In this document: positions 33,050-52,936 of the stretch, piece by piece
Layout: each line of letters starts with the position of its first letter
Numbering within the stretch: the first letter of the stretch is position 1
Source of the DNA: a virus
Length of the DNA: 64,000 nt
Direction: 5' to 3' (one strand)
Virus record (IMG/VR): IMGVR_UViG_3300025073_000397
Position numbers and translations under genes: made by a program
The notes under the pieces: model-generated
Databases searched by the model: none
What the model saw: only the letters and a program-made list of their open reading frames with translations
What the model was told of the DNA's origin: nothing

Positions 33050-33084
33050 CACTTGTACTACCCGACTCTCTCAAAGCCTAACAG
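33050..33084 (-). promoter_or_regulatory. promoter motif instance A (TGTTAG-N14-GGGTAGTA on minus strand), ~170 nt upstream of the NTase gene
   Basis: Plus-strand TACTACCC at 33056-33063, a 14-nt spacer, then CTAACA at 33078-33083. Confidence 0.6.
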
Positions 33085-33102
33085 AAATGTTACTGTCAGT
33101 GC

Positions 33103-33354
33103 TTAGTCAACCCAACCATAAGTCCGCAACCATGCCAATCGAGCCTTCATCCGTTCTTCATGGCCACTACCCAAATCAGCCATGGTCTGAACATGATCGT
33201 CACTCAATCTGACATACCGAGTCCGACCCATCTTCTCGGTTGCTTCTGCAAGCTTTCCGTAGACGTAATCGAAACCCGGCCAACAGCCCTTACCACAAGG
33301 CCCGGCCTTTCTTGCCTGTTCAGTTGGCGAATCCTGGAGTATCACGTTTCGCAT
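33103..33354 (-). CDS. small hypothetical protein
   Basis: 83-aa ORF with its own copy of the promoter motif 19 nt upstream. Confidence 0.45.
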   Translation of the reverse strand: MRNVILQDSPTEQARKAGPCGKGCWPGFDYVYGKLAEATEKMGRTRYVRLSDDHVQTMADLGSGHEERMKARLAWLRTYGWVD

Positions 33355-33372
33355 CTATTGCCCCCCGCTACA

Positions 33373-33407
33373 CACTTGTACTACCCGGCTGACTGAATTT
33401 CTAACAG
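33373..33407 (-). promoter_or_regulatory. promoter motif instance B
   Basis: TACTACCC at 33379-33386, a 14-nt spacer, then CTAACA at 33401-33406. The flank (ACACTTGTACTACCCG) is identical to instance A over 16 nt. Confidence 0.6.
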
Positions 33408-33416
33408 AGATTGGAA

Positions 33417-33959
33417 TTACAAGTTGGGGAATGACTCTTGGATTCGCTGTAGTAGAGTCTGTGCCTTTCTTTCCCATTTGGAAGCTGCTTCTGTCCCTTG
33501 GAGTGGGCCAATGGCTGCCCAAGTCAAAGGAGCGGACTCTTGGACCAAGGCCACAAGCTCCTGGATCAGGAATTCTTTCGTAATAGTCCCGATCGATTCC
33601 GTTCGATCCAGAGCATCCCCACGGATTCTCTTTGCACAGTAGTGGGCGTAGTTAGCTAACCACCCGTTTGAATAGATGCAGGATGTTGTATGCCCTTCCT
33701 TTGCCCTAACCATCTGAACGTCCTGTAATGGGATATAGAAACGACCAAGAATGTCAAAGAACCGTTCTTCCTGATTCTTCCCTGGCACATACGGAATATC
33801 CTTTATCAAAATGTCCTCCATAGCCCCAAACCGCAGACAATCCCTCAAAAGCGTATAGAGGACTGATGTCAGCGGGTCGTTGGTGTAGGTGACTGTGCCT
33901 GATGCTCTGGTGATATGATCCTTGTCAAGCATCGGGGAACTCCGTTGGTTTTGAGCCAT
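33417..33959 (-). CDS. hypothetical protein
   Basis: 180-aa ORF. Confidence 0.5.
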   Translation of the reverse strand: MAQNQRSSPMLDKDHITRASGTVTYTNDPLTSVLYTLLRDCLRFGAMEDILIKDIPYVPGKNQEERFFDILGRFYIPLQDVQMVRAKEGHTTSCIYSNGWLANYAHYCAKRIRGDALDRTESIGTITKEFLIQELVALVQESAPLTWAAIGPLQGTEAASKWERKAQTLLQRIQESFPNL

Positions 33960-34314
33960 CCATTAACTTCTTCCACCTACGTTGCTTCAATTCATCTTTG
34001 CTCTTGAGGGTCAACCCGCCCCATCCCGATCTAGGGTGATTCCACACAATGACAGTTGCATGGTCAGAGAGCAGGAGCAGCCAACTATTGCCCGCTATAA
34101 CGGATAGGGCACCCAGTGTATCTACTTCATTGTCCCGCATATCGGATTTTCGGGTCAGGTAGAGATCAAACACCGTAGCAGCTTTAATAAAGTGCTGAAG
34201 GGTCAGGAGATTCATGCCCCCCCGCACCTCATCGGACTCCCCCTTTGCAGCATTCAGGCTATTCAACATCTCTCGCACCGAACAAGCAACAGCACAAGCA
34301 TCTTCAAAGTTCAT
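33925..34314 (-). CDS. hypothetical protein
   Basis: 129-aa ORF that abuts the GroEL gene stop. Confidence 0.4.
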   Translation of the reverse strand: MNFEDACAVACSVREMLNSLNAAKGESDEVRGGMNLLTLQHFIKAATVFDLYLTRKSDMRDNEVDTLGALSVIAGNSWLLLLSDHATVIVWNHPRSGWGGLTLKSKDELKQRRWKKLMDGSKPTEFPDA

Positions 34315-35939
34315 TATCTGACTCTAGTGATAGCAGCATCAGCAGCCAACAGAGTTGTCGCCGCTGACACTGCTGATCCTATCACATGCTTGACTACAAG
34401 GTAAGGATCAACTATCTCTGGTGCCCCCCCGAAATCTCTGGCAGTATGTCCAAAGAGATCCCACCCGACCCAAGAGTCTGCACACGACCTTAACTTATCT
34501 ATGGTACTCTGGGGTTCCACTCCAGCGTTAAGAAGTAATCGTAAGATGGGGACCTTCAACGCTTTTGCCAACACTTTACCACCTACCGTCTGCCCCTCTG
34601 GAGTTTCCTCTAATGCTTGGCTGAGTCGCAGATATGCAACGCCTCCTCCTGGTAGGACACCACCCCTCAAGGCCGCATCTAAGGCATGTATGGCGTCTTC
34701 CACTCTAGCACGTCTTTCTTTGATTTCAGTATCAGTGGTTCCACCCACTTTCACGAGGGCCAAGCCCCCCTGTAACATCGCCATACGTTCCTTCAGCCGA
34801 TCCGTGTCATAAGGGTGCAGGGATGCTTCTATCTCTTGTTGTAGCCTTTGTAGCCTCTCCATGATGAAGGGTTGCTTGTCAGGGTAACCCTCCAACACGA
34901 ATTTGTTGAGCCCCAAAGTAGCTTTTCTGACGGAACCGAACCATTCTGCCTTGAACTCTTTGTGATCATAACCAGCATGGGAGTCAACATAGAGGGCCCC
35001 GGAGAGAGCGGCAATGTCTTTCATGGACTCTTCTCTGTACGGTCTGTCCCCTACTCGGAAGAGTGGGGCACATCGTAATCGAGGCCCATTGTCCTTGGGG
35101 ATGTTTCGGTCATTCATACTCAGAGTGGCCAATGCCCCACCGGATATCTCTTTGGATACGATCAGGCAGGGGTTCTCAGGGAATTTGCTGGCTTCCTCCA
35201 GTATCCTAAGAACATCCTTCACGTCGGACAGCATCTTTGGAACTACTGCTACCAGTGCCCCATCTAGGACTCGTTCTGTTGGAGCCTCCAGAAAATAGGG
35301 GCTAGTACACCCCTTCAGAGAAATGCCGCTCTTCAACTCCAGGGTGATAGGTTCTGTGGATTCACCTCCGGTCACTTGGATATTCCCAAGCTTCCCGATC
35401 TGGATGCTAGCGGTAGCTAGAGCATCCGCTATGTCTCTGTCTCCATTGGAGGCGATCATAGCCACTCGTTGGATCAGACTCTTCGTCCCTATAGGTAGTG
35501 CCATGTCCTGAGCCTTACTCAGAACTACTGTGCAAGCATCCCTGATCTCTTGGACCAAACCCACAGGGTTTTGGCTTGAGACGATAGCTTTAGCACCTTC
35601 CTGGATGATACCGTTAGCAATAACGGCTGTAGTTGTTGTCCCGTCCCCAACATCTTTGTTGACCCGCAGGCAGGCATCGATGATGATAGCAGCCCCTAAT
35701 TGTAAGAGAGGATCGTTCAGGGAGAGTTCCCGGGCTATAGTTGCACCATCTTTCGTGAGGATTCGACCGGACACTCGTTCTAAGAGTACTGTGGATGCTT
35801 GGGGGCCGAGACTAGAGCCTATAGCCCTAGCAGCTATTCCTGCCCCTCTGGCCATACCCTTGAGTGCGTTCCACCCGAAAGCAATTCTAGTGCTTTTCTT
35901 GGCTCGGGCTGTCTTCGAACCACGTCCCCAAACGTTCAT
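34314..35939 (-). CDS. groEL: GroEL/Cpn60-family chaperonin
   Basis: 541 aa. IAFGWNALKGMARGAGIAARAIGSSLGPQASTVLLE...ITKDGATIAREL...DVGDGTTTTAVIA is collinear with the GroEL N-terminus ([35 protein letters not shown]...DGTTTATVLA). No GroES-like gene is adjacent. Confidence 0.9.
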   Translation of the reverse strand: MNVWGRGSKTARAKKSTRIAFGWNALKGMARGAGIAARAIGSSLGPQASTVLLERVSGRILTKDGATIARELSLNDPLLQLGAAIIIDACLRVNKDVGDGTTTTAVIANGIIQEGAKAIVSSQNPVGLVQEIRDACTVVLSKAQDMALPIGTKSLIQRVAMIASNGDRDIADALATASIQIGKLGNIQVTGGESTEPITLELKSGISLKGCTSPYFLEAPTERVLDGALVAVVPKMLSDVKDVLRILEEASKFPENPCLIVSKEISGGALATLSMNDRNIPKDNGPRLRCAPLFRVGDRPYREESMKDIAALSGALYVDSHAGYDHKEFKAEWFGSVRKATLGLNKFVLEGYPDKQPFIMERLQRLQQEIEASLHPYDTDRLKERMAMLQGGLALVKVGGTTDTEIKERRARVEDAIHALDAALRGGVLPGGGVAYLRLSQALEETPEGQTVGGKVLAKALKVPILRLLLNAGVEPQSTIDKLRSCADSWVGWDLFGHTARDFGGAPEIVDPYLVVKHVIGSAVSAATTLLAADAAITRVR

Positions 35940-36696
35940 TGAGTTCCTTGGTCAAACAGATAACCCAACTCTCTGTATTCTCTGCATCTTTAGCATTAAG
36001 TGCTTGGGCCATCTGGATAACTAATACAGTGAGATTGGCATCTTGCTTTTGTATGATCCCGAGAAAAAGGTCGACCAGACTTTTCCCAAAGTTCAAATTA
36101 GGGGCAATGGTAGCAATTATCTTTGTAGGATTCCGTGACAATATCCGTACTACTTCATTTGGTGCCCGAAGAACCTGAGTTGCATCTTTGGGGAGGGGTA
36201 AGTCAAACATAGCTTCAGCAGGAAGAGTCACAGTTGGGAGGGGAACCTCAGCTGCTTTCTCGAATTCCGCCTCTGCTACATCCTTTTGAGCCTGTTCCAA
36301 CTTCTTTAGCTCATTTGTCGTGAGACCCTTAGTGTTGATTTTGAGAGATTCTTTGATGCCATTGAAGGTAAACACCAAGAATCCTGTGTCGAACTCCCCC
36401 TCGTCGGGCAGATCAATAGGGGGGAGAAACCCACCCAGAGCGACCCAAGTATAGAGATTCTTAGGTCTGGGCCAAAAGCCCCAGGAATTGATATCCACAC
36501 CCAGCAGGAACCTTGACATGTCCAACCGGTCCCCGAACACTTCGATCAGACGCTTACCAATGCGATCTGGAGTGGTGGTTTCATCCATGTCCGACTCGGA
36601 GAGTATCCGAGTGAGAATGGATTCCACCTCTCGAACCTCATTGGGCACAGGACGGTCAATAACGCCATAAGCACTTGTAGTTATGTTCCAACGCAT
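35887..36696 (-). CDS. hypothetical protein
   Basis: 269-aa ORF that overlaps the groEL start by 53 nt. Confidence 0.5.
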   Translation of the reverse strand: MRWNITTSAYGVIDRPVPNEVREVESILTRILSESDMDETTTPDRIGKRLIEVFGDRLDMSRFLLGVDINSWGFWPRPKNLYTWVALGGFLPPIDLPDEGEFDTGFLVFTFNGIKESLKINTKGLTTNELKKLEQAQKDVAEAEFEKAAEVPLPTVTLPAEAMFDLPLPKDATQVLRAPNEVVRILSRNPTKIIATIAPNLNFGKSLVDLFLGIIQKQDANLTVLVIQMAQALNAKDAENTESWVICLTKELNERLGTWFEDSPSQEKH

Positions 36697-36923
36697 CTCT
36701 ATCTTTTAGACCTCTACCCTCTCAGACAGATCAGTACCTGAGACTATTTAAGCTCAAATTTTGGGGGCAGGAAAGTTCCCTACCCATCCTATTAACTCTA
36801 CTCCAATCTAGTGGCTAGAAACTCGACTATTCATCCTATGATCTTGTTTCTGGTAGATTGAGACCCCCACCACTCAGATTGAGTGCACAAGGGGACACTA
36901 ACTTGAAAAGGGAGTTCAGTGCA

Positions 36924-37250
36924 ATGACTAAGGTACTCGTATTTGCAACGATTTTAGGTATGCTGGCTTGCAGCAACGATTCCAAACCCACAGATGCTGC
37001 CGTTCTAGACGCAACTGTCGAGTCTCTATCGGGAGATGTGGTATCTCCGGACGTCGAAGCACAGGATGACGGAGCAGCTGCAGAAGTTGGGGTCACAGCC
37101 GATGCTACAGATGCTGCTATCCCCTTGGATGTAGTTCCTGGTGTTGAGACCCTAGATGCAATTATCCTCTTGGATGTAGTTCCTGGTGATGTTGCACCGG
37201 ATGTCCAGGTTGTGCCGGACGTAGCAGTCGACTCTGTGGCAGCCGAATAA
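36924..37250 (+). CDS. small secreted lipoprotein with V/P/D-rich repeats
   Basis: Start moved to the Met of MTKVLVFATILGMLAC, a lipobox with the LAC signal peptide, and GGAG lies 9 nt upstream. The repeats are DVVPGVETLDAIILLDVVPGDVAPDVQVVPDVAVD. Confidence 0.5.
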   Translation: MTKVLVFATILGMLACSNDSKPTDAAVLDATVESLSGDVVSPDVEAQDDGAAAEVGVTADATDAAIPLDVVPGVETLDAIILLDVVPGDVAPDVQVVPDVAVDSVAAE

Positions 37251-37260
37251 GGTTGGGCCT

Positions 37261-38163
37261 ATGGCTCCTCTCAGAAAACGATCCGACCTGACTCCCCCAC
37301 TAGGACATCCTGGTGGTCCTTGTCATGTAGTGGATCGAATCCAGAAGGAGGTTCGAAACCCACGAGTCCAGGAACATCTGGTGGGGGAAATCGAGAGGGG
37401 CAAGAGTCTGAGTAACCCTGAGGCCGCTGAGATATATGACCTGGAGAGTGAGATTGGGATTGGAGGCCCTTTCAAACAGATCATCCTTGGGCCACATTCT
37501 CTATATCGGATGGATCTAAGGGGAGTAACCCTGCCAGCCATTCGGGCCACACTCAAAAACTTCTCCAGAGAATACAACGATGCCAAGTCTCGTAGAAGCC
37601 CCCAATTTGAACGTTGGGAGCAGGAGTTTAATCAAGGGGGCGGTATCAACTGGACGGATCCAAGATTGGGGCTTACAATTGTCTTTGCCAATGGGGGCTA
37701 TGGGCGGGTCAAGATCATTACCACCTATTGGAAAGGGGAACCCGATCCAAAGGCACACCCTGGAGAGTGTCAAATCCAACTGCATGCCAGTAGAGTTGCC
37801 CAACGTTATCTGAAAGAACGGGCATCTATCTCTAGAATAGCAGGCAAGCATCTGGCTAAAGTGAACTCCCACCCGATGCCTTTACAATCAGTTAGGTGGG
37901 TGCAGCAAGAAGTCCTGACCCCACAGATGAAAAAGGCGATAGATGATTTTGCTCGTGCCTTCGTGACGAAAGGTCAATCTATTCGTCGTATTTTCTCTGA
38001 GGCTCTGGACAATGCTCGCAATCAGACAGAAGGTGGGCAGTACATTCGAGACGTGGATGCCTTTATAGCCGTCAAGCACTACCTCAAATCTGGGCCCTGG
38101 TCTGATGATAACCTTCTCGATCCCTTAGCGTCCGTCATAGCCTATGGGGATTACGTCTTTTGA
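37261..38163 (+). CDS. hypothetical protein
   Basis: 300-aa ORF. Confidence 0.5.
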   Translation: MAPLRKRSDLTPPLGHPGGPCHVVDRIQKEVRNPRVQEHLVGEIERGKSLSNPEAAEIYDLESEIGIGGPFKQIILGPHSLYRMDLRGVTLPAIRATLKNFSREYNDAKSRRSPQFERWEQEFNQGGGINWTDPRLGLTIVFANGGYGRVKIITTYWKGEPDPKAHPGECQIQLHASRVAQRYLKERASISRIAGKHLAKVNSHPMPLQSVRWVQQEVLTPQMKKAIDDFARAFVTKGQSIRRIFSEALDNARNQTEGGQYIRDVDAFIAVKHYLKSGPWSDDNLLDPLASVIAYGDYVF

Positions 38164-38852
38164 CGCCTGAGTGGCTCAAGGTTTCCTTTCAGGTACCTTT
38201 CCGTGTCCATCCTAGTCCCCAGTACATGATCAACTACTTGGCCACGTTGGAGAGCGACAGTGCGAATCTTGTCACCCCTCATCCCACTCCCAACCATAGC
38301 CTTCCTTTGACTATTACGATCCTGCTCTTTCTTGGCTCGATCTTGTTCCTGTATCCGTGCCGACAAGATAGCCTTAGCTAATCGTAAATTCTGCTGCTGG
38401 CTGCGTTCAGTTTCGCACCTTACCGCTAGTCCCGTAGGCTTGTGGGTCATCTGTATGGTGGAAGCCGTTTTGTTCCTGTTCTGTCCACCAGCGCCGTGGC
38501 CACAAGTGGCTTTGATCTCCAGATCTCGTTCATCCAGTTTTACAGTGGACTCATCTGGCATATCAAGAATGGCTACCGTTATTGTAGAAGTATGGACCCT
38601 TCCCCGTTTCTCAGTGGGTGGCACACGTTGCCATCTTATGCCACCTGCTTCATGCTGGAAAGCCTTTTTGGCCCCAACCCCACTTACTTGGAATACCAGT
38701 ATCCCAGGATGCTCTTCCACCACCTGTACTTCTAGACCATTGATAGTGCACCACTTCTGATAAATGCGGGACTGTTCTAATACCAATAGCCGTGCGTCCA
38801 TTCCCCCTTCAGCCGCTCTAACTTCCACCAGTATCGTTTCCATGGCTGTCAT
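38151..38852 (-). CDS. class I peptide chain release factor homolog lacking domain 1 (PrfH-like / RF1-like)
   Basis: Start moved to MTAMETIL (SD AAAGGAA 4-8 nt upstream). The GGQ motif is ATCGHGAGGQNRNKTASTIQMTHKPTGLAVRCETERSQ. The PxT-like tripeptide PPT sits 44 residues upstream of GGQ, the same spacing as RF1 PAT to GGQ, and RVPPTEKRGRVHTS resembles RF1 RVPATESQGRIHTS. No domain-1 equivalent is present. Confidence 0.75.
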   Translation of the reverse strand: MTAMETILVEVRAAEGGMDARLLVLEQSRIYQKWCTINGLEVQVVEEHPGILVFQVSGVGAKKAFQHEAGGIRWQRVPPTEKRGRVHTSTITVAILDMPDESTVKLDERDLEIKATCGHGAGGQNRNKTASTIQMTHKPTGLAVRCETERSQQQNLRLAKAILSARIQEQDRAKKEQDRNSQRKAMVGSGMRGDKIRTVALQRGQVVDHVLGTRMDTERYLKGNLEPLRRQKT

Positions 38853-38859
38853 GTTCCTT

Positions 38860-39156
38860 TCATTTGGGTGACTCCATCCGAGCCACCATGTCACTTTCCC
38901 AATCCTGCAAGCCGTAGTTAGCAAGGTTACGCAACTCACGGGTCTGGTGACGCCAGTGGTAAACCCGATCCCGACAACCAGTACAGCACATCCCAGAATC
39001 TATCTTGGGCTTTCCATGAATACGCTTGTGGCAGTGACACCCTAAAGGTGTAGATTTGGCATACCGATGCGGTTCCCGACCGGGGGGTGCAAAAGGAGTT
39101 TCACAGCGACGCCTGATGGCACAAAGAGTAAGGGACCGTCTGAGTCCACGATCCAT
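38860..39156 (-). CDS. small basic Zn-finger-like protein
   Basis: 98 aa. A strong SD (AAGGAGG) lies 8 nt upstream of the ATG. CHCHKRIHGKPKIDSGMCCTGC is Cys/His-rich. It sits immediately upstream of the RF-like gene, and promoter motif H lies upstream. Confidence 0.45.
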   Translation of the reverse strand: MDRGLRRSLTLCAIRRRCETPFAPPGREPHRYAKSTPLGCHCHKRIHGKPKIDSGMCCTGCRDRVYHWRHQTRELRNLANYGLQDWESDMVARMESPK

Positions 39157-39243
39157 GGTACAACCCTCCTTGAGCGGGCGCTACCCGCATGCTTGGGAAG
39201 ATTGCACTATGGAAAGTTCGGAACATCAGCAAAACCTCCGTTA

Positions 39244-39278
39244 CGTCCATACTACCCCAAATGCTATGCACCTAACAA
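39244..39278 (-). promoter_or_regulatory. promoter motif instance H, upstream of the Zn-finger + RF-like gene pair
   Basis: TACTACCC at 39250-39257, a 14-nt spacer, then CTAACA at 39272-39277. Confidence 0.6.
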
Positions 39279-39531
39279 GAAAATTCTGCGGTAGGGGTGT
39301 GCTTCCACCTACCTTTTCTTGCTGGGGATGCTCCACAGACCCCTGGAATCCTTGGCCAAAGTCTTTGCCTTACAGGCATTGAATAGCACAGCCTGTGTGG
39401 ATTTGTCATTGGGGTACCCGACCATAGCGCACAGGGACACTATCATTCTCCCGGAGATGCATTTGTGGTGGGTGACAATCCGATGAACAAGTTCTGTGGG
39501 TGTCTTGGTAGTCATGCCTGATCTCCTAAGT

Positions 39532-40191
39532 TTACCAACCAAAGGACAATCGCAGGATCCGCATGTTTGCGTTCCTACTTCTATACGTGATGAAGGCACT
39601 ATCCGGTATGTGATCGATGCCGCAATACTCCTGGATGCTCTGTGCAAAACGAGTACGAGCAGCAGCCAACGAGACAGACCTAGTTCCCCGCATAGCCTGA
39701 TTGATAACCAGTAGGAACTGCCCAAGACGCTCGTACTGTGATCTAGCAAAGGTCAACACGGGGGTCAGGATGGCATCTTGTTCAAGGTTACTGGGGCTGT
39801 AGAAGGCATCAAAGACCAGGACGCCTACGTTGTGCAGAGTGGGGTTATCCAAGTCCGACAGAAGGTGCAGGATGTCAGCATGTACCCATTGAGTGGTATC
39901 CCCAGCATAGGCTTGGGAGTTCCTACGGATGATGTCTGGATCCCTGTTGACCCCGATGTAACGTCCTGAGCCGGGGATAATGGCACCTTCTTTCAGTAGG
40001 AGTCCACAAGTGACATCAGGTGCGTCTCCACAGAGTTCTACCCAGTCATGCGTGAGGTGCCCATTATGCCACAGGCATGTGGGATGAGTTTCGTCCCGTA
40101 GGAGATCCAGAGTGCCAACTCGTATTTGATGTTTCTTTGGGTACTGGTCCGGGGGATAGAAGTGGATGTCGGTTGCTGGAGTGGGTTTCAT
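39532..40191 (-). CDS. hypothetical protein
   Basis: 219-aa ORF. An overlapping 146-aa ORF (39309..39749) in another frame was not called separately. Confidence 0.45.
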   Translation of the reverse strand: MKPTPATDIHFYPPDQYPKKHQIRVGTLDLLRDETHPTCLWHNGHLTHDWVELCGDAPDVTCGLLLKEGAIIPGSGRYIGVNRDPDIIRRNSQAYAGDTTQWVHADILHLLSDLDNPTLHNVGVLVFDAFYSPSNLEQDAILTPVLTFARSQYERLGQFLLVINQAMRGTRSVSLAAARTRFAQSIQEYCGIDHIPDSAFITYRSRNANMRILRLSFGW

Positions 40192-40243
40192 CCCATTGAC
40201 CTTTTCCAGGAGGGCTTTGGCTTACCTAGCAGGATGGAGGTCA

Positions 40244-40453
40244 CTACTTCTTCTTAGCGCCCAACGCAAAGCCAAGGGCGTCAATCTGCTTGATTTCAGC
40301 CGGGGACAGTACCACCATCCTCTGCCAAAGCCGGTAGCCGTCCTTACAGATGTAGGACTTCGGGACATGGCTATTCCCGAACTCATTCTTGTAAGCGGCC
40401 AGGTGGTCAATGAACTGGGGGAACCATTCTCTCTGCTCTGCTATAGTCTTCAT
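40244..40453 (-). CDS. stand-alone single helicase-associated (HA) domain protein
   Basis: 69 aa. WFPQFIDHLAAYKNEFGNSHVPKSYICKDGYRLWQRMVVLSPAEIKQIDALGF is one HA unit (PF03457-like). Its own promoter motif C lies 39 nt upstream. Confidence 0.55.
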   Translation of the reverse strand: MKTIAEQREWFPQFIDHLAAYKNEFGNSHVPKSYICKDGYRLWQRMVVLSPAEIKQIDALGFALGAKKK

Positions 40454-40491: not shown

Positions 40492-40526
40492 ACTAGGTAC
40501 TACCCGGATCTTTGAAAGTCTAACAC
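40492..40526 (-). promoter_or_regulatory. promoter motif instance C
   Basis: TACTACCC at 40498-40505, a 14-nt spacer, then CTAACA at 40520-40525. A CCCGG-ATATCA-CCGGG hairpin (40467-40482) lies between the motif and the start codon. Confidence 0.6.
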
Positions 40527-43342: not shown

Positions 43343-45339
43343 GCTACATCCATCCCTTTCGTTAATCGGATGACTTGGTCATTGATATGCGTCCAGTTGA
43401 CCACTCCAGCGGGAAGGCCAAAGTAAGGGGATGCATCCCCTGACGTGGAAATCGGTGCCACGCCGTTGTTCTTATTGAGGTAGTCAAACATAGCCACTCG
43501 TATTTGCTCCAGAGTGAACTTTGGTGCCTTGAATCTTGCTCGGAGTCCCTTGGCAATCTCTTTAGCTGTAATGCCCCGGAACTGAGACATATGCCCGATG
43601 ACCGTCGCCGTTTGTTTCGTATTGGCTATTTCCTGTGCGAACTCAGCGATCACACCATCAAAGATCCCCTGCAACTCATCCCGGATGATACGGGAGTCCC
43701 CGCTGAAACCACCCATCTGCTTGATCCTGCCATTCAACTTGGTCTTGAATACAGTGAATGCCAGTGCCTTCCGTTTGATCATGTCATAGGCCAGGGCACG
43801 TTTGGCCCTAGCCAATACATCTCCTTCCAATCCCATCCTGACGGTGAAGAAGTCCACTACATCCTGTGTGGTGGGTTTGGCTATCCCATCCTCCTGCAAA
43901 GCATTGATAGCCATAACCATCTGCCCGGTAGCCTCACGGCATTGCTGGACATCCCCCCCGATGTAGTTGACCACATCTTCCCACGTTTCCTCGTAGGGTC
44001 GTTTCTTACCCGTAGGCTTCACTCCAAATCGACGGGGGAGATTCCCCAAGTACCCCTGCCCGATCTCTACATCAGCCATGAAACAAGCAGTCAGGAAGGC
44101 ATGGTCCTTATGCTGCTGTTCAAAGGCATCAAACACTTCTGATGATGCGCTGGGGACAAGGAACGTCAAGACAGTCGTGTTCTTGTGCTGCTCCGGGTAA
44201 CCTTCAATGTCACCCTTGAAACGCAAACCCCTACCCAACTTTTGTAAGATAAGCCCAAAGGAATGAGTCAGCCCAATATTGTAGACATGACTGCACAGTG
44301 GCCAATCTGTCCCCTCATTGAACCGGGCGCATGCTAGGATCACTTCCACTTTAGAGTCGGCATACACCTTCACCAACCGTTCGGTTCGTAACAGAGCTTT
44401 CAGCGCACAAGTTACTCGGACCCCACCCTTTACAGCATTATGGACATGGACACCACGCTTAGTGAATTCAGCCATCAACCGGTTTGCCCACCTCTCAGAT
44501 CTCTTGGGGGGAACAATGACAACCGCTTTGGGATGCCCATCCTTTTCCCATAGATCCACGATCTGTTTACTGGACTCAGGGGAAGCATAGGCCATTGCTC
44601 CACCCGCAAGCTGCTCTACAGAAGTCGCCTGCATGGAGATAGGGCAGGATCTGATCAGGACATTGCTAGGAGCGAACTCCCCGGATTCAATGTGATCTGC
44701 CAGAGTACGAGTGTACCTGGGGGCAAACTCTCCCATAAGGATATCATCATCCCTACGGAATGGAGTCGCAGTCATATGGACTACTGTACCACCACGCTCA
44801 AGCCATGCCTTGGTGAAGGCACCAACACAGTTACCTATGGCGGCATGGTGGGCTTCATCCAGTATCAGGATGCACTTGGACAGGTCTTCCGGGAGGAGTG
44901 TCTGATCTTCCTTGAACCACCGGGAAACTGCTTGCTGAGTTGTGACCAGAGTCCGTTGAACTGGATTGACTGCCCGGACATGTGCTCTGAATTGGGAACG
45001 ACGGCCCTTACTGACCTGGAACCACTGCTTTGCCCTTACCATTATATTGCACAGCACAGAAACCCGCCCAGGTACACTTTCCGGGGAGGGCAGTATGTCC
45101 AAGTCATCAGAGTAAATGAAAGCATCGGTAATTTGGCGCTGTGGCGCTACTACGACAGCCGACACAAATTGCCGTGTATTGAGTACCCTTTCCACTAAGT
45201 AAGTCCCCATCAGGGACTTACCAGACCCTGGTGGTCCACTCAGCACCACCTCTTTACAACCAGTGGTGAGGCACCGAAACAGGTAGTGGAAGCATTCCTG
45301 CTGGTAAGGTCTCAAGGTACGTGTTTGATGCAACGCCAT
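43339..45339 (-). CDS. SF2 helicase, ResIII/DEAD-like
   Basis: Walker A is VLSGPPGSGKSLMGTYL; the DEAH box is ILILDEAHHAA; the helicase-C region is around MTATPFRRDDD. The track start at 45357 is GTG, so the ATG at 45339 (MALHQTRT) was preferred. Confidence 0.8.
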   Translation of the reverse strand: MALHQTRTLRPYQQECFHYLFRCLTTGCKEVVLSGPPGSGKSLMGTYLVERVLNTRQFVSAVVVAPQRQITDAFIYSDDLDILPSPESVPGRVSVLCNIMVRAKQWFQVSKGRRSQFRAHVRAVNPVQRTLVTTQQAVSRWFKEDQTLLPEDLSKCILILDEAHHAAIGNCVGAFTKAWLERGGTVVHMTATPFRRDDDILMGEFAPRYTRTLADHIESGEFAPSNVLIRSCPISMQATSVEQLAGGAMAYASPESSKQIVDLWEKDGHPKAVVIVPPKRSERWANRLMAEFTKRGVHVHNAVKGGVRVTCALKALLRTERLVKVYADSKVEVILACARFNEGTDWPLCSHVYNIGLTHSFGLILQKLGRGLRFKGDIEGYPEQHKNTTVLTFLVPSASSEVFDAFEQQHKDHAFLTACFMADVEIGQGYLGNLPRRFGVKPTGKKRPYEETWEDVVNYIGGDVQQCREATGQMVMAINALQEDGIAKPTTQDVVDFFTVRMGLEGDVLARAKRALAYDMIKRKALAFTVFKTKLNGRIKQMGGFSGDSRIIRDELQGIFDGVIAEFAQEIANTKQTATVIGHMSQFRGITAKEIAKGLRARFKAPKFTLEQIRVAMFDYLNKNNGVAPISTSGDASPYFGLPAGVVNWTHINDQVIRLTKGMDVA

Positions 45340-45355: not shown

Positions 45356-45390
45356 ACTTGGTACTACCCACCCAACACAAACCCTAACAA
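45356..45390 (-). promoter_or_regulatory. promoter motif instance D, upstream of helicase + HA-repeat operon
   Basis: TACTACCC at 45362-45369, a 14-nt spacer, then CTAACA at 45384-45389. Confidence 0.6.
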
Positions 45391-45415: not shown

Positions 45416-45450
45416 CTGTTTGACAACCCTGAATCGGAGTAATATCTTAG
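45416..45450 (+). promoter_or_regulatory. promoter motif instance G (variant), divergent from D, upstream of the 45549 gene
   Basis: TGTTTG at 45417-45422, a 14-nt spacer, then GAGTAATA at 45437-45444. Confidence 0.45.
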
Positions 45451-45548
45451 CGAATGGCGGTTCGGTGGTTTTGCTGCCCGACCTCCTGAAACTGGCTTTA
45501 AGCAATTAGGGTCTTAGCCAGTGACCCGTAACAATCTAGGAGGGTCAG

Positions 45549-46412: not shown

Positions 46413-46906
46413 GCAGTACAGGTAGCTTCCACATAAGTCGTCGAGTGGATTGTTGCATCTTGGGTATCAACCAAGTTAGCTACAACTCTGCCTACTAACC
46501 TCAGAGTAAACGGGAACGTGCTGTTCTGTAACAGACGGATAGCACCACCCCGGTTGAAATTCTGAAGAATGTTGGTCACTGGAATCGTATCTGTAATATC
46601 GACCCATGCAACTGGAACTGCCCCAATCCCTACCTGCCATTTGCAATCGCAGCCTGCACCACCAGCCGACCCTACAGCATCCCAATCAAAGAACACATAA
46701 CAGGACTGGATAGTTCTCGACAAAGAGCCCGGGGCTGCAATGGTCACCCGATTCATCTCAGAGAAAGCTGCTGTATTGATTTGGGTAGCAATAGTGTCAA
46801 AGACAGTTGGGTCAGTGGTTAGTGTGGAACCACCCGCTGTAGCTTCATATGGATAGAACCTCAATTCACTGGAAGTCCGTCTTGCCCTTCTTTCCGTGAA
46901 ACCCAT
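46409..46906 (-). CDS. hypothetical protein
   Basis: 165-aa ORF, convergent with the previous gene (4-nt overlap). Confidence 0.5.
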   Translation of the reverse strand: MGFTERRARRTSSELRFYPYEATAGGSTLTTDPTVFDTIATQINTAAFSEMNRVTIAAPGSLSRTIQSCYVFFDWDAVGSAGGAGCDCKWQVGIGAVPVAWVDITDTIPVTNILQNFNRGGAIRLLQNSTFPFTLRLVGRVVANLVDTQDATIHSTTYVEATCTA

Positions 46907-46964
46907 GAAGAACCCCCCCCACTATCTCACTAGGGGGAAACCCCATAGAAAGGAAAACGGGGCA

Positions 46965-49205
46965 TTAGCCATTCCACCGCTTGTCCTGTTTCTCAAACTC
47001 CGCTTCAAAATCAAAAGGTGGCAGACCCAACTCCTTGCGAAGTCGCTGCAGTCCTCGTCTTGACAGGGCTACTCCAATGGATAGACCCATCCCATGCCAA
47101 GGGTTCTTCATGTGGTCAGCGGGGTCTAATCTATCAAGGATATCGTTACCAGAGTAAGGTGACTGTGGGTAGTAGTGCTGCAGTTGCCACGGGAGATCCT
47201 TGATGTCCATCCCCAAAAGGAAAGCGATAGCAGATGGGTCTTTGGGATGGAAACTTGCATAGTAGACCACAGGGCCACCCGTAAGGGGACAAATGTAGTG
47301 CCCGTTCTTGTTGTTGCCATTGAGCATAAAGTTGGGGAAATCCCAGTACTTTGGACCGTAGGCAGGGGATCGGGACAATGCCCAATGTCCCAGATTGTAC
47401 GTCTTGCCAGGTTTGTTTATGTCGTAGAACGAATCTTCATAGTCATCGTCATCTTTGCCATACCGCTTCCCGCATTCTATCATGTGGGCACAATGATGAC
47501 ACTCCAGGTTGGACACTTTGGGTTCTCCACAAACAGCACACCGATTTAGCATCTTTGGGGACGGGTCGTTGGCTAACATCTGGATCAGGCGATCCTTCTG
47601 CTCCTGTACTCTATCGTAGTACCATCCACTCGTAGGGTGGAAAAACTTATGGCTTCCCATGATCTCAGGAGCCGTTCGGTCGAATTCAGCATCGGCTAAC
47701 TTCTGGACGATATCACAGAAGTTCTTGCGTGCCACGAATACTCGGTCAGCCTCAATCTTTCCCTTAACCCCGAAATCTAGGGGATTCAGGGTCAACAGGG
47801 GATGACCCCCAACATTACGTTCTGTGACTCTAGCATTTACAGCCAAGTCAGCTAATGCCACATCAACAGGAGTATCCAGTTTAGGTAGGGCTGCCTTATG
47901 AGGCCACGCATCTACTTCTGCGGCAATCTCTGTTGCCTGTTCAGGAGTGAGTCCGCTGGGCAACAAGGATAGCAATTCTGGGGTACCTACAAGGTTCAGG
48001 ACGGAATCCGGTACCTGTAGGCCGTATCGCCCTATCATCCACTGATTGTGACCTACGGGGGTTGACCGCCACTGATCCCTAAGTGCATCCGTCTTGATGG
48101 ATTCCTTCGTATGCGGGGCCACGTCAAGTGGCTTGTACTGACCAGCAACCACAAGGGCATGGTTCTTGTCGATCAGCGCATCGGGCACCCTGAGCATCTC
48201 CACCGTGTAGGAGGTTTCCAGAAGGGGCGTAGCCTGAGCCTTGAAAAACTGCTCCTCAATCAGGTCAAACAGGAGGGATGCCCAGATCACTGTCTCTGGG
48301 AACAACTTGGAGAAGTCCTCGATAGGAACCGCTTGGGTATCATAGGGCACAAGCCCGTGCCGTGCTTTGGCAAAGGCTTCTCTCCGTACCGGGTCAATAG
48401 CCACATCCAGCAGTTCGTATGGGAAATGAGAATTCATGACCCTCTTATAGAAGTTCCTCTCGGGCCTACGACGCTTCTTCTCCTGTCCGGGGTAGTCGTT
48501 CTTCGGTTTGTCCGTGAGGACCGTCAACTGCTGGCCATTGCTGATGGCGACACAGAAGAAAGAGTGTATGGCTTCAGGTGCCCGAATGAGACAGATGGAT
48601 ATCCCCGGGAGTTTCTGCTGCTGCATGGCTCTCAATAGAGATGGCATGTTCCAGAATTCAAAGACCTTCCGGTTATAGAATGCCTTGGCACCTCTGGGTT
48701 CACCCCACAGGAATTGGTGCCTTTCCAGCGTCTTTAGCGCCTGAAGGGCATCTCTCCTGAGGAACGCCATCTCACCGGGTTTGGTCAGCCATGCTTCCAC
48801 GTCTTCCCGATCCAGGCTGTAGACGGAAACGGCTTCCCGTACACGCTGGATGAACTCTTTTACTACGTCATGGACTTCCGACCACTTCAAGAAAGCATAG
48901 AGAGCCTTGTAGCGGTCCATACGCTCTTGCCGTTCGGGTGAGAGTCCGGCAATCAACTCCAAGCCAGAGAAACGCTCTGACTCTAAGAAGATCTCCGTGA
49001 GTGCGTTGAGCAACATAAATGTGGTAACACCAGTGGGGTCCAAATCCCGCGACTCATTGAGTTCGTCTGTCATGGACTGTGTGTCCCAAGAGTACCAGTC
49101 GGGATTTTCTATATCGTTGGCTCGGATGGCGACCTTTGCCCATAGGAGCAGCCCTTCGTTGACTACTTCGTTGATGTTCATAGCAGAATGCACCTCACCT
49201 TCCAC
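46965..49205 (-). CDS. large hypothetical protein with Cys/His cluster
   Basis: 746 aa with CAVCGEPKVSNLECHHCAHMIEC. Promoter motif F lies immediately upstream. Confidence 0.6.
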   Translation of the reverse strand: MEGEVHSAMNINEVVNEGLLLWAKVAIRANDIENPDWYSWDTQSMTDELNESRDLDPTGVTTFMLLNALTEIFLESERFSGLELIAGLSPERQERMDRYKALYAFLKWSEVHDVVKEFIQRVREAVSVYSLDREDVEAWLTKPGEMAFLRRDALQALKTLERHQFLWGEPRGAKAFYNRKVFEFWNMPSLLRAMQQQKLPGISICLIRAPEAIHSFFCVAISNGQQLTVLTDKPKNDYPGQEKKRRRPERNFYKRVMNSHFPYELLDVAIDPVRREAFAKARHGLVPYDTQAVPIEDFSKLFPETVIWASLLFDLIEEQFFKAQATPLLETSYTVEMLRVPDALIDKNHALVVAGQYKPLDVAPHTKESIKTDALRDQWRSTPVGHNQWMIGRYGLQVPDSVLNLVGTPELLSLLPSGLTPEQATEIAAEVDAWPHKAALPKLDTPVDVALADLAVNARVTERNVGGHPLLTLNPLDFGVKGKIEADRVFVARKNFCDIVQKLADAEFDRTAPEIMGSHKFFHPTSGWYYDRVQEQKDRLIQMLANDPSPKMLNRCAVCGEPKVSNLECHHCAHMIECGKRYGKDDDDYEDSFYDINKPGKTYNLGHWALSRSPAYGPKYWDFPNFMLNGNNKNGHYICPLTGGPVVYYASFHPKDPSAIAFLLGMDIKDLPWQLQHYYPQSPYSGNDILDRLDPADHMKNPWHGMGLSIGVALSRRGLQRLRKELGLPPFDFEAEFEKQDKRWNG

Positions 49206-49240
49206 ACCCTGTACTACTCTGCCGTGCTACTTCCTAACAG
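49206..49240 (-). promoter_or_regulatory. promoter motif instance F (variant)
   Basis: TACTACTC at 49212-49219, a 14-nt spacer, then CTAACA at 49234-49239. Confidence 0.5.
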
Positions 49241-49928
49241 GTTTAGCGGGTTTTCCCGGGAAAGGCAACACATTGGCGGAATCATCTGAAAGATATGAGG
49301 ACGGGTCCAGCGATGTAACCCCTTTTGTGACCTGGCTGTCATCCACGGTCCCATGGGTGACCCGCACATTGGTGACTGGAGCGACTTTCCAGTCTTTATT
49401 GCGCCCATAGCACTCCAACATGTAGTTAAGTGCGGCTACGATTTCATCTGGCTTTTTGGTGTAACGGGAACAAGCACGGACCAACTCTTTGGTGGACAAG
49501 TCCTCTATGCAAATCTGAATGACCGTATCCTTTCCCAGACGACTGCTAGCAAACTTCTCTGCTACTGTTCGGAGTAGCGCATCTAAGGCATCATCCGAGA
49601 TACCACGGTAATCAAAATCAAAGCGTTTGACGGGCTCAGCATGACGGAGTAGGAATGTGGCGATATCCTGCATACTCTTTCCTTTCCGCCACATATCCCT
49701 GACGATAGGATAGTCGTCATCTGATTTTATTTTGGTATGGAGGCTCTCCAGAACGGAATGCAGGTCTAGGGATTTGGCTGTGCAGAGTTGGTCTAGCATA
49801 TCCAAGAGATCGCCATAAAACCTGCACCACCCGAAGTAATCCTGATTCAACCTCACCATGCAGACGACAGCAATGACTCCTACCCCTATCAAAACACCCG
49901 CAACAATTTCCAACCATGGGGACGGCAT
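49227..49928 (-). CDS. membrane-anchored hypothetical protein
   Basis: 233 aa with an N-terminal TM helix WLEIVAGVLIGVGVIAVVCMV. Confidence 0.5.
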   Translation of the reverse strand: MPSPWLEIVAGVLIGVGVIAVVCMVRLNQDYFGWCRFYGDLLDMLDQLCTAKSLDLHSVLESLHTKIKSDDDYPIVRDMWRKGKSMQDIATFLLRHAEPVKRFDFDYRGISDDALDALLRTVAEKFASSRLGKDTVIQICIEDLSTKELVRACSRYTKKPDEIVAALNYMLECYGRNKDWKVAPVTNVRVTHGTVDDSQVTKGVTSLDPSSYLSDDSANVLPFPGKPAKPVRK

Positions 49929-49932
49929 CTAT

Positions 49933-50364
49933 TCACACCTTCCGATTAGCCCGTCTTAAAGCGGCTTCCTTTCTCTTGACCTTCTTCAAGGCAAGTGCCT
50001 TGGCTTTGGTTTCCTCCGCTTCCCGCCTCTTACGACCTGCTTCTTGCAGAGCGGCTGCAAAAGTCGAGAGCTGAGATGGAATGGCTTTCTTCTGCTTTTT
50101 GGTGATAGCTCTGATCAATGACTCGTGTATCCAGGTCCGGGTGCCCCACTCATCCACGGTGACTTCCACATACCTACCAGCAGGTTTTTCACGTTTGGAG
50201 AGTTTGAAATCCCGCCGCATATGGGCAGCCCTTTCTTCAGTCAATATTTGCGTCTTAGGCTCTCCAGATGGTATCCTACATGTCTTCCACCGTCCCTGTA
50301 CCAATGCCTTGACCATGACCCAATTGATAGGTTCTTTGGGTGGAACTTTGATTAGCCTGCGCAT
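49933..50364 (-). CDS. basic hypothetical protein
   Basis: 143 aa with a Lys/Arg-rich C-terminus. Confidence 0.45.
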   Translation of the reverse strand: MRRLIKVPPKEPINWVMVKALVQGRWKTCRIPSGEPKTQILTEERAAHMRRDFKLSKREKPAGRYVEVTVDEWGTRTWIHESLIRAITKKQKKAIPSQLSTFAAALQEAGRKRREAEETKAKALALKKVKRKEAALRRANRKV

Positions 50365-50582
50365 TCAGAAATCCTCCTCCCGATCACCCGTATCACTGTA
50401 CCATTAGAGTGAACGAACAGCCGCCTCTCCCGTACCTCACTGGTATCTTCTGAACAGGTGTAGACGCAATTATCCAACAATCCCTGAACCACGTCTCCCT
50501 TTTGGATTGCCTGTACTTCTTTCCATGTGCCGTCAGCCATCATTACCTTGTGATTCCCGGTCATTGCCACAGGTACTTTCAT
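50352..50582 (-). CDS. small hypothetical protein (doubtful)
   Basis: 76-aa ORF that overlaps both neighbours. Confidence 0.25.
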   Translation of the reverse strand: MKVPVAMTGNHKVMMADGTWKEVQAIQKGDVVQGLLDNCVYTCSEDTSEVRERRLFVHSNGTVIRVIGRRISECAG

Positions 50583-52842
50583 ACAATCCCCCCATCAGTT
50601 TCGGATTACGATTGCCATGTAGGATCCTTCTGTCCAGAAGGTCATTGGTTTTCTGGAACAGCAATTGTGCTATCTTTGCGAGATCATCTGAATAGACGGA
50701 ATCCTCAAACAGATCCTGAACGTATTCCGTCCCTTCCCCCAAACCCACACCCACTGTATATACCCCGATCGCCCGAGCAATACGTACTTGTCTATTGATT
50801 ACGGGGACATGCTTTGAATCGGGTTTGCCGTCTGTCACCACATAGAGTAGCTTGTGTTTCTCCGGCCGTCTACTCAACTCATTCAAGGCCATCTGGATAC
50901 CATCTGCCATGGGTGTAGTGCCAACCGCCTTTGTGTTGACAAATCGCCAACGTATTGATTGAAAGGGTTCGTCCCATGTCTTGAAGATGTCATAATGTAC
51001 TGACCCAGACCGATGGCACCCTGATGGGTCAGCACCCATTAGGACGTCTGGGGGTACTCGCTTTTCCCCGTTTCGAAACCCAATACAAAGGGTTGCGCAC
51101 CCCACAGCGTCAAAGGGCTCTATGATCGTAGTCATCGCTTGTGCGGCGAACTCCTGTTTAGACAAGACCATTGGGGCTTCCGTCTTCTTCCTCTGTCTGC
51201 TCTTCTTGCTATCTGTAATCAACTTTTTGGCTGTAGCAACTAACCCACAGGCTTCCTTCATCGAACTGGATTCATCTAGAACAACCGCGATAGCCCCACT
51301 GGTATCCACCCTTTCAGAGGCTACACAGTATGCCCGGTCTGGCACCACCCCACCCCTCAGGCAAATAGCCGATTCTACCAGCATTCTCTCTGAGAGCATT
51401 CGGCCATGCCGGACTCCATGTGCGACCGATGTCAACTCCAATGCTTTGAACCGATTGCGAAAACGTGCACGCAAATAAGAAGCAGGCACTTGAACCATCT
51501 CCATCAACTCGGACGCCCTTTGATTGTCGTGCCCCTTACCAAATGTGGATGGTTCAACCAGAGCCATTGTGTCGAAGGTAGTCGTAAGGGGGCAATAAGG
51601 TGCTTCAGTCTTGTCGGCGGGCACCTTCTCCATGGGACAATTGGTATTGAGATCCTTAATTGCCCCATTGAATGCCCCTTCTGAGTTCAAGGTCTCCACA
51701 CCATTTGACATCCCGACAAGAACGCCTTTAGCCCAATCTCCGTCTGGGAGGGGGGTCTCGGGGATCCCCAAGTGGGTTTCATCATTGACTTCACTTCTCT
51801 CCTCTTGGATATCAACCTGTGTCTGCCACCCACACACCGTACAAGTGATAATCCCGATCTGTGAGAATTGCGGAGCTGATCGTAGGCGCAATTTATCCTG
51901 GGACGCCCCACAAGCGGGACAGGTGGAGACACTAGTGGGCTGGCTGGTCTTGTCCTCAAGCCCCCCCATATTCTCCAACATACTGATCAGATCCATGGCT
52001 ATACGAATGCACCCCAAGTCATCATCGGCACTCAGGGAAATGGCTTCTTCTAAAAGGGGGAGGATTGCCCCTGACTCCACCATCTCTACAGTAGTGGGGC
52101 TCCAGTCTTTATACCGTCCCAAAGTGAGACGTTGAAGCTCCGATTGGTACCCTAACCCCAAGTCCCTGAATGCCCGTACCAGGATGGTCGCATCAGATGG
52201 GGGCTTCTTGTTCGACAATGCTTCTCGATGGAGAATGAAGTCCTGAAGGTCAACCATCTTGGGGTATGTACCCGGGAACGCCTTGACTCCTAGTCGTTCA
52301 ATCCGAATGTCCTCGATGTCATTCGAGATATCCAATAGAACTGTGGCATACTTGGACCAATCCTTGACCTTGGCCCAACGTGGCAATACGAGGTTGGCCA
52401 CCTCTTCAGTTGTCAGAGGCCGTTGGCACGAGTAGAGACTATGCCAACTCTCATGGTATGCACCACCTACCAGTGCCATTGCCATTTTATGGGGTAGATC
52501 ATTGGGTGTCTCTGCTATCTGAATGTGGGGCCACAGCACTGTCTCTGTATTAGCCTTGGAAACCCATTCTCGCACATGATGGGGGGTCGGCATAGTGCCA
52601 GGATTGGCCTCAGCCCAAGAACATGCTTCTGCCAACATGAGTCGAAATGTCCACCGACCAATATTCTTGAACTCTGTGCCACAAGAGATGATGGGGATAC
52701 TGTTGGCCCCTAAGATACCTATCACAGATGCTTGGTGCGTCTCTCGGTATCTGCTACCCGGAAGAACAGGCATGGTTACTACGGTGGGGACCAACTTACT
52801 GGCATCTATTGACTCCATAGCCATTCCGATGTGCCTGCTCAT
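50533..52842 (-). CDS. vWA-domain protein (CobT-like) with central Zn-ribbon
   Basis: The C-terminal vWA MIDAS motif is AIAVVLDESSSM, with GTTPMADGIQMA and LLYVVTDGKPD. The track start at 52860 is TTG and lies inside promoter motif E, so ATG 52842 (MSRHIGMAMESID) was preferred. Confidence 0.7.
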   Translation of the reverse strand: MSRHIGMAMESIDASKLVPTVVTMPVLPGSRYRETHQASVIGILGANSIPIISCGTEFKNIGRWTFRLMLAEACSWAEANPGTMPTPHHVREWVSKANTETVLWPHIQIAETPNDLPHKMAMALVGGAYHESWHSLYSCQRPLTTEEVANLVLPRWAKVKDWSKYATVLLDISNDIEDIRIERLGVKAFPGTYPKMVDLQDFILHREALSNKKPPSDATILVRAFRDLGLGYQSELQRLTLGRYKDWSPTTVEMVESGAILPLLEEAISLSADDDLGCIRIAMDLISMLENMGGLEDKTSQPTSVSTCPACGASQDKLRLRSAPQFSQIGIITCTVCGWQTQVDIQEERSEVNDETHLGIPETPLPDGDWAKGVLVGMSNGVETLNSEGAFNGAIKDLNTNCPMEKVPADKTEAPYCPLTTTFDTMALVEPSTFGKGHDNQRASELMEMVQVPASYLRARFRNRFKALELTSVAHGVRHGRMLSERMLVESAICLRGGVVPDRAYCVASERVDTSGAIAVVLDESSSMKEACGLVATAKKLITDSKKSRQRKKTEAPMVLSKQEFAAQAMTTIIEPFDAVGCATLCIGFRNGEKRVPPDVLMGADPSGCHRSGSVHYDIFKTWDEPFQSIRWRFVNTKAVGTTPMADGIQMALNELSRRPEKHKLLYVVTDGKPDSKHVPVINRQVRIARAIGVYTVGVGLGEGTEYVQDLFEDSVYSDDLAKIAQLLFQKTNDLLDRRILHGNRNPKLMGGLYESTCGNDRESQGNDG

Positions 52843-52858
52843 GCACCACCCCCCCTGC

Positions 52859-52893
52859 AACTCATACTACCCGCCTGATTCCACTTCTAACAG
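52859..52893 (-). promoter_or_regulatory. promoter motif instance E
   Basis: TACTACCC at 52865-52872, a 14-nt spacer, then CTAACA at 52887-52892. Confidence 0.6.
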
Positions 52894-52901
52894 AAAAAAA
52901 T

Positions 52902-52936
52902 TGGTTAGGAAGTCTGCAAGTTGGGTAGTATGAGGT
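52902..52936 (+). promoter_or_regulatory. promoter motif instance E-prime, divergent from E
   Basis: TGGTTAG at 52902-52908, a 14-nt spacer, then GGGTAGTA at 52923-52930. The AAA+ gene starts 26 nt downstream of this site. Confidence 0.6.

Follow-up and report, generated by a model that had tools for sequence, protein, structure and literature searches.

A bipartite promoter-like motif with a fixed 14-nt spacer was found at nine strong sites in the 64,000-nt DNA of the virus record IMGVR_UViG_3300025073_000397 (hereafter the window, meaning the whole 64-kb stretch that was analyzed). As judged from the sequence, the nine sites are very probably promoters of a non-housekeeping class. We further propose, with a slight lean in favor of the whole chain, that they form a dedicated, element-specific promoter class that is read by the element's own divergent sigma factor, for which the product of an open reading frame (ORF) at 18787-20139 is the candidate. 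The firing of the sites, their start positions, the reading factor and the timing are what we infer from the observations described below.

The pattern TGTTAG-N14-GGGTAGTA gave nine matches at ≤2 mismatches compared with 0.18 expected, and the maximum in 100 dinucleotide shuffles was two. With three mismatches, the extra matches were scattered and near chance. The consensus over the nine strong sites was (T/G)GTTAG-N14-G(G/A)GTAGTA, and the -10 box was GGGTAG at seven sites and GAGTAG at two. The octamer GGGTAGTA occurred eight times, and seven of the copies had [TG]GTTAG exactly 14 nt upstream, while 9 of the 12 occurrences of G[AG]GTAGTA were paired with a -35 box. The two-box weight-matrix scan was bimodal, with the nine sites at 25–28 bits and the next best matches at 15.5 and 13.0 bits. 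The spacer was exactly 14 nt at all nine sites, and its columns carried about 0.1–0.6 bits each, compared with 1.5 bits in the boxes. The boxes were asymmetric, being neither inverted nor direct repeats. For the control, the loosened pattern GTTAN-N14-NNGTANTA had two matches in 1.4 Mb of bacterial DNA and none in 767 kb of other relatives' loci. The exact pattern scanned over IMG/VR gave only single chance matches per contig and was uninformative.

The position of the sites was also consistent with promoters. All nine were co-oriented with the downstream ORF. Counted from the 3' end of the -10 box, a start codon with a Shine-Dalgarno sequence before it followed after 22–44 nt at eight sites and after 172 nt at site A. 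The start codons behind sites D, F, E, and E' matched independent gene calls on near-identical ENA contigs. Seven sites lay wholly within the approximately 7% of the window uncovered by ORFs, and the other two, F and I, overlapped the 3' end of the preceding co-directional gene. Sites E and E' were mirror-image neighbors, standing back to back in a 101-nt divergent gap. An A/T tract was located upstream of most -35 boxes. Furthermore, a GTG recurred 3–5 nt past the -10 box, which is suggestive of a transcription start near this conserved GTG, a few bases past the box.

Related loci were fetched via homologues of the CobS/MoxR-like AAA+ gene adjoining site E'. Two of them, L134 and L136, had 57–58% protein identity and contained 8 and 9 copies, respectively, of YGTTAC-N14-(G/C)AGTAGTA (~20 kb), compared with 0.00–0.01 expected. 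Spellings in relatives included CGTTAC-N14-GAGTAGTA, GGGCTCAG...GTAGT, and TTTTAG-N14-GGGTAG. All 17 sites in L134 and L136 were co-oriented with independently called genes, and promoter-like sites stood at orthologous positions, before the AAA+ and vWA genes. In the alignment of the three AAA+ upstream regions (the window, L134, and L136), only the A-tract, GTTA(G/C)GA, G(G/A)GTAGTATGAG, and the Shine-Dalgarno sequence were kept. Relatives likewise had a 14-nt spacer, except for one site with 15 nt.

When 80 further loci were searched without bias for pairs of 5-mers with a gap between them, the same geometry appeared with other spellings. The -35 and -10 boxes were GTTACTTT and GGGTAGAC in L146-148 and L217, GGGCTCAGAA and (C/A)GTAGT in L155, L177, L178, and L198, GGGCTCAAC and CCGTAGTA in L201 and L216, and CGGCTTGG and GGTAGT in L199. 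In addition, L149 had GCTCAG and GCGTAG, L211 had TTTTAG and GGGTAG (N14), L212 and L167 had GGCTTAG and GAGTAC (N14), and L196 had GCTTAC and GCGTAGAT. When 5-mers exactly 16 nt upstream of GTA[GC] were counted, a [G/C/T]T[T/C][A/G]N box was present at no fewer than five copies in 17 relatives' loci from about 10 lineages, each with its own -35 spelling, and the general form in these loci was NNTYAN-N16-GTAG. Only two loci had at least five copies of an unrelated 5-mer at the same spacing. The window's own spelling was absent from the 767 kb of relatives' loci. The other spellings in relatives, together with this absence, indicate that the motif is, by this comparison, an inherited architecture whose boxes drift by lineage. 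Apart from this, dense short tandem or periodic repeats (e.g., CCCTC or TGGCC every 18–19 nt) dominated the k-mer pair counts in L139, L174, L187, and L216.

These results can be set against an initial annotation, which covered positions 33050-52936. It had described a bipartite promoter-like signal with boxes unlike sigma70 and a fixed 14-nt spacer of unconserved sequence, always upstream of genes in the matching orientation. This description is now supported by the statistics, polarity, and conservation. Among the nine copies that it had counted, sites A, B, C, D, E, F, H, and E' were placed and spelled as quoted, but site G (45417-45444, plus strand) was rejected as a motif member, as it had three mismatches and 15.5 bits and better fitted the sigma70 type. 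Consequently, one of the two back-to-back pairs, E/E', was retained, whereas D/G is a mixed divergent pair because site G belongs to the sigma70-type class. The ninth strong site, site I, was missing from that annotation and lies outside its range. The absence of the motif from 1–18 kb held for the strong sites. One weak candidate, GGTTAG-N14-GAGTATTG at 3987-4014 (minus strand), lay between genes, ahead of gene 3138-3890 and within this block otherwise without the motif. It scored 13.0 bits, where about 1.5 chance matches above 12 bits were expected, and is uncertain.

The candidate cognate factor, P0001, is a 450-aa protein encoded at 18787-20139 on the plus strand, in an ORF open from 18751. 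Its layout consists of an N-terminal Mrr_N-like winged helix, a sigma2-like domain (residues ~231-345), and a sigma4-like domain (residues ~376-450). Only about 30 residues link the two domains, too few for a region 3, which corresponds to an ECF-like (extracytoplasmic function) architecture. No close relative was found among 5.8 billion proteins, and the 163 remote homologues were conserved over residues ~230-448. The profile of 54 homologues matched the sigma4 of SigW (E = 9e-4), with weaker matches to other sigmas, and the Pfam families among these 54 were Sigma70_r4_2 (12/54), Sigma70_r4 (7/54), and Sigma70_r2 (2/54). The PHROG match had an E value of 5.7e-5 over 60 residues only. The AlphaFold model with the 54-sequence alignment had a predicted local distance difference test (pLDDT) score of 94–98 for residues 231-345 and 376-450, and the single-sequence model, with a pLDDT of 36, was unusable. 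The region 4 helix-turn-helix that characterizes the Sigma70 family was found in the product. The 450-aa product is accordingly modeled as a sigma-family fold. The initial annotation had noted a sigma-region-4-like protein at 18751-20139, and the sigma fold was borne out, although the protein is more than region 4, being modeled as two domains, sigma2-like and sigma4-like, behind an N-terminal winged helix. Homologues of P0001 were present in none of the AAA+ loci and only in the separately fetched L218 and L220.

The winged-helix module (residues ~67-215), which is related to Mrr_N, is common to a 274-aa protein, whose N-terminus is homologous to that of the sigma-like protein. The gene of this protein (54119-54943, plus strand) lies directly after the CobS-like AAA+ gene, inside a motif-headed operon, and the two genes were kept in synteny across essentially all of the 80 relatives. 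The protein further has a central C-x8-10-C-x2-C-x5-6-C cluster after YHxDPYIR and a C-terminal CxxC...HxxC Zn ribbon. In the lineage with the GTTACTTT/GGGTAGAC boxes, a different, very divergent ECF-like sigma (361 aa) was encoded about 7 kb from the AAA+ gene, at L148:396-1478 (plus strand) and also in L147, L217, and L190. The L148 product matched Sigma70_r2 (E = 0.002) and Sigma70_ECF (E = 0.005) weakly.

Sigma70-type sites were present in the same DNA. One, TTGACA-N16-TATCTT at 18628-18655 (plus strand), was preceded by an A-tract and lay directly before the sigma-like gene, and TTGACA-N16-TAAGAT was found at the equivalent place in the syntenic homologue locus L218. The former site G, at 45420-45448 (plus strand), read TTGACA-N17-TATCTT, was preceded by an A-tract, and had a 287-aa Zn-ribbon gene about 100 nt downstream. 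It was the top sigma70-type match within 33–53 kb, where such matches were not enriched (18 found vs. 18.6 expected). The sites at 18628 and 45420 had the same hexamers, 16- and 17-nt spacers, A-tracts, and leaders of about 100–130 nt, and they may form a small 'early' class. The motif did not have this form. TGTTAG matched TTGACA at 1/6 positions, and the last position of TAGTAY (-7) was T in only 4/9 sites, with GTAGAC or GTAGTG in relatives. A TTGACA-like -35 box together with a TAnnnT -10 box was found only at site G and at 18628. The canonical site before the sigma-like gene, both here and in L218, suggests that the host reads TTGACA/TAnnnT and that the motif is a different class. The host probably uses ordinary promoters, and the motif would require another specificity factor. 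The sigma70-like geometry with non-sigma70 boxes in the initial annotation was apt for the boxes, but its 17 nt to a TAGTA core describes the sites less well than the comparison with the SigB/SigF-type N14-GGGTAT.

The presence of a sigma70-type promoter before the sigma-like gene, here and in the closest homologue, suggests an early-sigma to middle-promoter cascade. Under this model, host RNA polymerase with the housekeeping sigma would transcribe 18787-20139 from 18628-18655, and the sigma2-sigma4 product with its extra winged helix would bind the host core polymerase. The new sigma would then guide the polymerase to (T/G)GTTAG-N14-G(G/A)GTAGTA, with sigma4 reading the GTTAG box, sigma2 reading the GGGTAG box, and the start lying near the conserved GTG. 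As a result, a middle or delayed-early set of nucleic-acid-metabolism and small genes would be turned on, comprising the RlaP-type nucleotidyltransferase, the helicase and HA proteins, the CobS/CobT-like pair, the PrfH-like factor, and small ORFs.

Several observations weigh against this cascade. P0001 alone was below every Pfam sigma cut-off, and the Foldseek matches were almost all sigma factors, but at E = 0.03–1. L220, a 14-kb contig, encodes a 31%-identical homologue (P0125) yet has no motif of such type, and about half of the AAA+ relatives, mainly of low GC, show none either. The contigs of two other homologues, P0122 and P0123, were too short for this comparison. The unrelated divergent sigma in other lineages suggests that another factor, or one encoded beyond the window, may be the cognate one, and the analysis covers 64 kb of a probably much larger genome. 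In addition, the true specificity factor may be the 274-aa protein, or this protein may act as a co-factor. This point belongs to a broader alternative, which we regard as unlikely, that the sites are read by another element-encoded apparatus, either a polymerase outside the window or an activator such as the 274-aa protein acting with the host polymerase in a MotA-like manner. The synteny of the 274-aa gene in essentially all relatives, its place in a motif-driven operon, and the winged helix that it has in common with the sigma-like protein agree with such a role, as does a motif architecture that is family-wide while the AAA+ loci are devoid of P0001 homologues. However, a fixed but unconserved spacer between two boxes is what characterizes recognition by sigma2 and sigma4. 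Moreover, no DFDGD-type motif was found in the window ORFs and no polymerase domain in the large ones, and the -10 box is without the sigma70 TAnnnT that MotA-type appropriation needs, the T at -7 being lost in relatives.

It is also conceivable that a host alternative sigma of the SigB/SigF type reads the sites and that the encoded sigma-like protein does something else. The motif is close to GTTTAA-N14-GGGTAT and to the Streptomyces coelicolor forms GCTTGG-N13-GGGTAG and GTGATG-N14-GGGTAG. HA domains, which were seen in the window, are typical of actinobacteria, in line with such a host. Nevertheless, the -35 box changes per lineage (GTTAG, GTTAC, CTCAG, CTCAA, CTTGG, TTTAG), whereas the SigB consensus is cross-recognized, and the element has its own sigma-fold gene with an early-type promoter. 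A scan of 185,579 species genomes gave no relative and so no host clue. We consider reading by a host SigB-type factor quite improbable. Finally, the sites might not be promoters but repressor or regulator sites, or another cis element for partition, replication, or processing, given that regulator operators likewise cluster upstream of genes. This is very improbable. The asymmetric boxes had a polarity that followed the gene at 9/9 sites here and 17/17 in L134 and L136, the start-codon distance was short and constant, A-tracts lay upstream, mirror-image pairs occurred in divergent gaps, and the geometry equaled that of known sigma-dependent promoters. Of all the readings, a non-promoter role is the hardest to reconcile with the strict polarity and geometry.

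For the individual sites, most of those on the minus strand had the exact motif. Site A (33056-33083, minus strand; TGTTAG-N14-GGGTAGTA) was located upstream of the RlaP-type nucleotidyltransferase gene (31705-32883). It could head a long minus-strand array down to about 20.1 kb. The 172-nt leader after it folded no better than shuffles, and Rfam had no matches anywhere in the window. Site B (33379-33406, minus strand) had the exact motif, with the ATG of an 83-aa gene (33103-33354) 24 nt downstream. Sites A and B (33040-33083 and 33363-33406, minus strand) were identical over 16 nt from the -10 box onwards, GGGTAGTACAAGTGTG, which suggests a local duplication of the promoter and start region. 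Site H (39250-39277, minus strand; exact motif) was followed by GGAGG and the ATG at 39226, 23 nt downstream, and a hairpin with a T-rich tail lay directly upstream of it. This site heads small ORFs and the PrfH-like release-factor gene (38151-38939, minus strand), which has RF-1 and PCRF domains. The nucleotidyltransferase and the PrfH-like factor, both behind motif sites, have functions of the RNA-repair/ribosome-rescue type.

Site C (40498-40525, minus strand; exact motif) was 44 nt upstream of a 69-aa stand-alone HA-domain gene (40244-40453). Site D (45362-45389, minus strand; exact motif) was followed by AAGGAG and the ATG at 45339, 22 nt downstream, and heads the ResIII helicase gene (666 aa) and an HA-repeat gene. 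Site F (49212-49239, minus strand) read TGTTAG-N14-GAGTAGTA, and the ATG of a 738-aa gene followed at 49181, 30 nt downstream. Site E (52865-52892, minus strand; exact motif) was followed after 22 nt by the ATG at 52842, where the CobT-like vWA gene begins, and site E' (52903-52930, plus strand; GGTTAG-N14-GGGTAGTA) was 31 nt upstream of the CobS/MoxR-like AAA+ gene (52962-54122). Site I (62670-62697, plus strand; TGTTAG-N14-GAGTAGTA) was 32 nt upstream of an 80-aa gene (62730-62972). For the minus-strand arrays 1164-18442 and 20129-32883, no strong promoter of either class was detected, and a weak TTGAAA-N17-TATTGA near 18480-18515 (minus strand) was the sole candidate. These arrays include genes for RecA, RecD2, ribonucleotide reductase, ornithine decarboxylase, and an SNF2 helicase. 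The reductase (8180-11578, minus strand) is of class II (B12-dependent) and is split by an intein with an HNH endonuclease.

The window proteins were found identical on groundwater metagenome contigs (PRJNA292723). Every box was kept in ten strain-level contigs, and the E/E' gap showed only two spacer single-nucleotide polymorphisms and homopolymer-length changes. In L123-L132, at the equivalent of window 52843-52905, a T7 or T6 run lay between the -35 boxes, the ribosome-binding region of the vWA gene had G7 or G5, and these homopolymer differences shift the called start of the vWA gene between contigs. Megablast of the 20-kb region against phage records gave no match, and tblastn with the AAA+ protein gave only a remote cyanophage MoxR. 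The RecA search gave a 485-kb uncultured phage at 48% identity, which is without the AAA+ protein of this window. The window helicase had no IMG/VR relative. The GTDB scan showed no close relative among the 185,579 species genomes, with AAA+ proteins at ≤29% identity and no prophage copies. The relatives were one IMG/VR contig and many metagenomic contigs, the longest of about 440 kb. The window showed no virion gene. The element is called phage-like and of an uncultivated family because no close cultivated phage or bacterial genome was found, but IMG/VR and metagenomic contigs were related.

Phage sigmas with private promoters are a classic gene-timing device, and to our knowledge nearly all known examples come from cultivated phages. 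Here, a promoter class could be read directly from metagenomic DNA across about 10 lineages of an uncultivated family, and the motif can help to delimit transcription units when such genomes are annotated. The pairing of the 450-aa protein with the motif sites is testable with any core polymerase. If it is true, it would provide a natural diverged set of sigmas and -35 boxes for specificity evolution or orthogonal expression parts. The motif also shows that SigB-like promoter geometry is not restricted to the stress regulons of cells. As a tentative and rather doubtful extension, the window may represent a globally distributed, uncultivated, large phage-like family with a co-evolving sigma/promoter system. 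In such a system, the SigB-like geometry (-35, N14, G-N-GTAG) would be fixed, the -35 box would be re-spelled per lineage, and the Mrr_N-like winged helix with a minimal sigma2-sigma4 would be a new sigma architecture, giving a series of orthogonal pairs.

A search of the literature for the motif string yielded nothing but primer noise, and the 'moraphage' paper was set aside, since it concerns a different, Bacteroidota-infecting lineage. In the limited literature searched, the motif consensus, its conservation across the family while the boxes drift, and a winged helix fused to a minimal sigma appear undescribed. Compared with housekeeping sigma70 promoters (TTGACA-N17-TATAAT), the motif has the same layout of two boxes, spacer, and short leader, but it differs in the -35 box, with a 1/6 match, and in the unconserved T at -7. 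The T4 MotA-like reading, with a sigma70 -10 box and an activator box, was rejected for the latter reason. The sites were also different from the promoters of T7-like single-subunit or phiKZ-like multisubunit polymerases, which have a single unbroken conserved stretch at the start site, as the spacer was unconserved and no polymerase gene was present in the window. No DxDGD-type (DFDGD) catalytic motif was found in any window ORF, nor a polymerase domain in the large ones.

The promoters of ECF (group 4) sigmas, such as TGAAAC-N16-CGTA for SigW of Bacillus subtilis, differ from the motif, which is without AAC in the -35 box and has GGGTAG rather than CGTC at -10. The candidate also differs from ECF sigmas by its size of 450 aa, with a 230-aa N-terminal extension, and no anti-sigma gene was recognized in the window. 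In phage sigma cascades, such as those of gp28 and gp33/34 of the Bacillus phage SPO1, gp55 of T4, and gp36 of phiEco32, an early product replaces the host sigma and redirects the core polymerase to non-sigma70 boxes. The SPO1 late -35 box, CGTTAGA, has GTTAG in common with the motif. However, the candidate has no sequence relationship with these sigmas, the -10 box, spacing, and domain architecture are other, and the lineage here is uncultivated.

The SigB/SigF type (group 3, general stress; Firmicutes and Actinobacteria) has the same N14 spacer as the motif and the same first five -10 bases, GGGTA. Its promoter is GTTTAA-N14-GGGTAT, with a spacer of 12–15 nt and an optimum of 14 nt (PMC9847131), and the motif spacer and GGGTA box fell within this description. 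In S. coelicolor, the -35 box is loose (GNNT), GCTTGG-N13-GGGTAG and GTGATG-N14-GGGTAG were mapped as SigB-family promoters, and the SigB consensus is cross-recognized from Bacillus to Streptomyces (PMC8346170). In the SigB-type -10 box, GGG and the fifth-position A hardly vary (PMC8346170, PMC9847131). The -35 boxes are partly alike, in the form G/T-N-T-T-A-N, with TTA in agreement. TGTTAG matched GTTTAA at 3/6 positions in register, and the relatives had GCTTAG, TTTTAG, CGTTAC, and GCTCAG. By contrast, the -10 box of the motif extends to GGGTAGTA(Y), with G and not T at position 6, and its -35 box, TGTTAG, varies by lineage. The candidate sigma also differs, being without region 3, carrying an N-terminal winged helix, and being encoded by a mobile element rather than by a cell.

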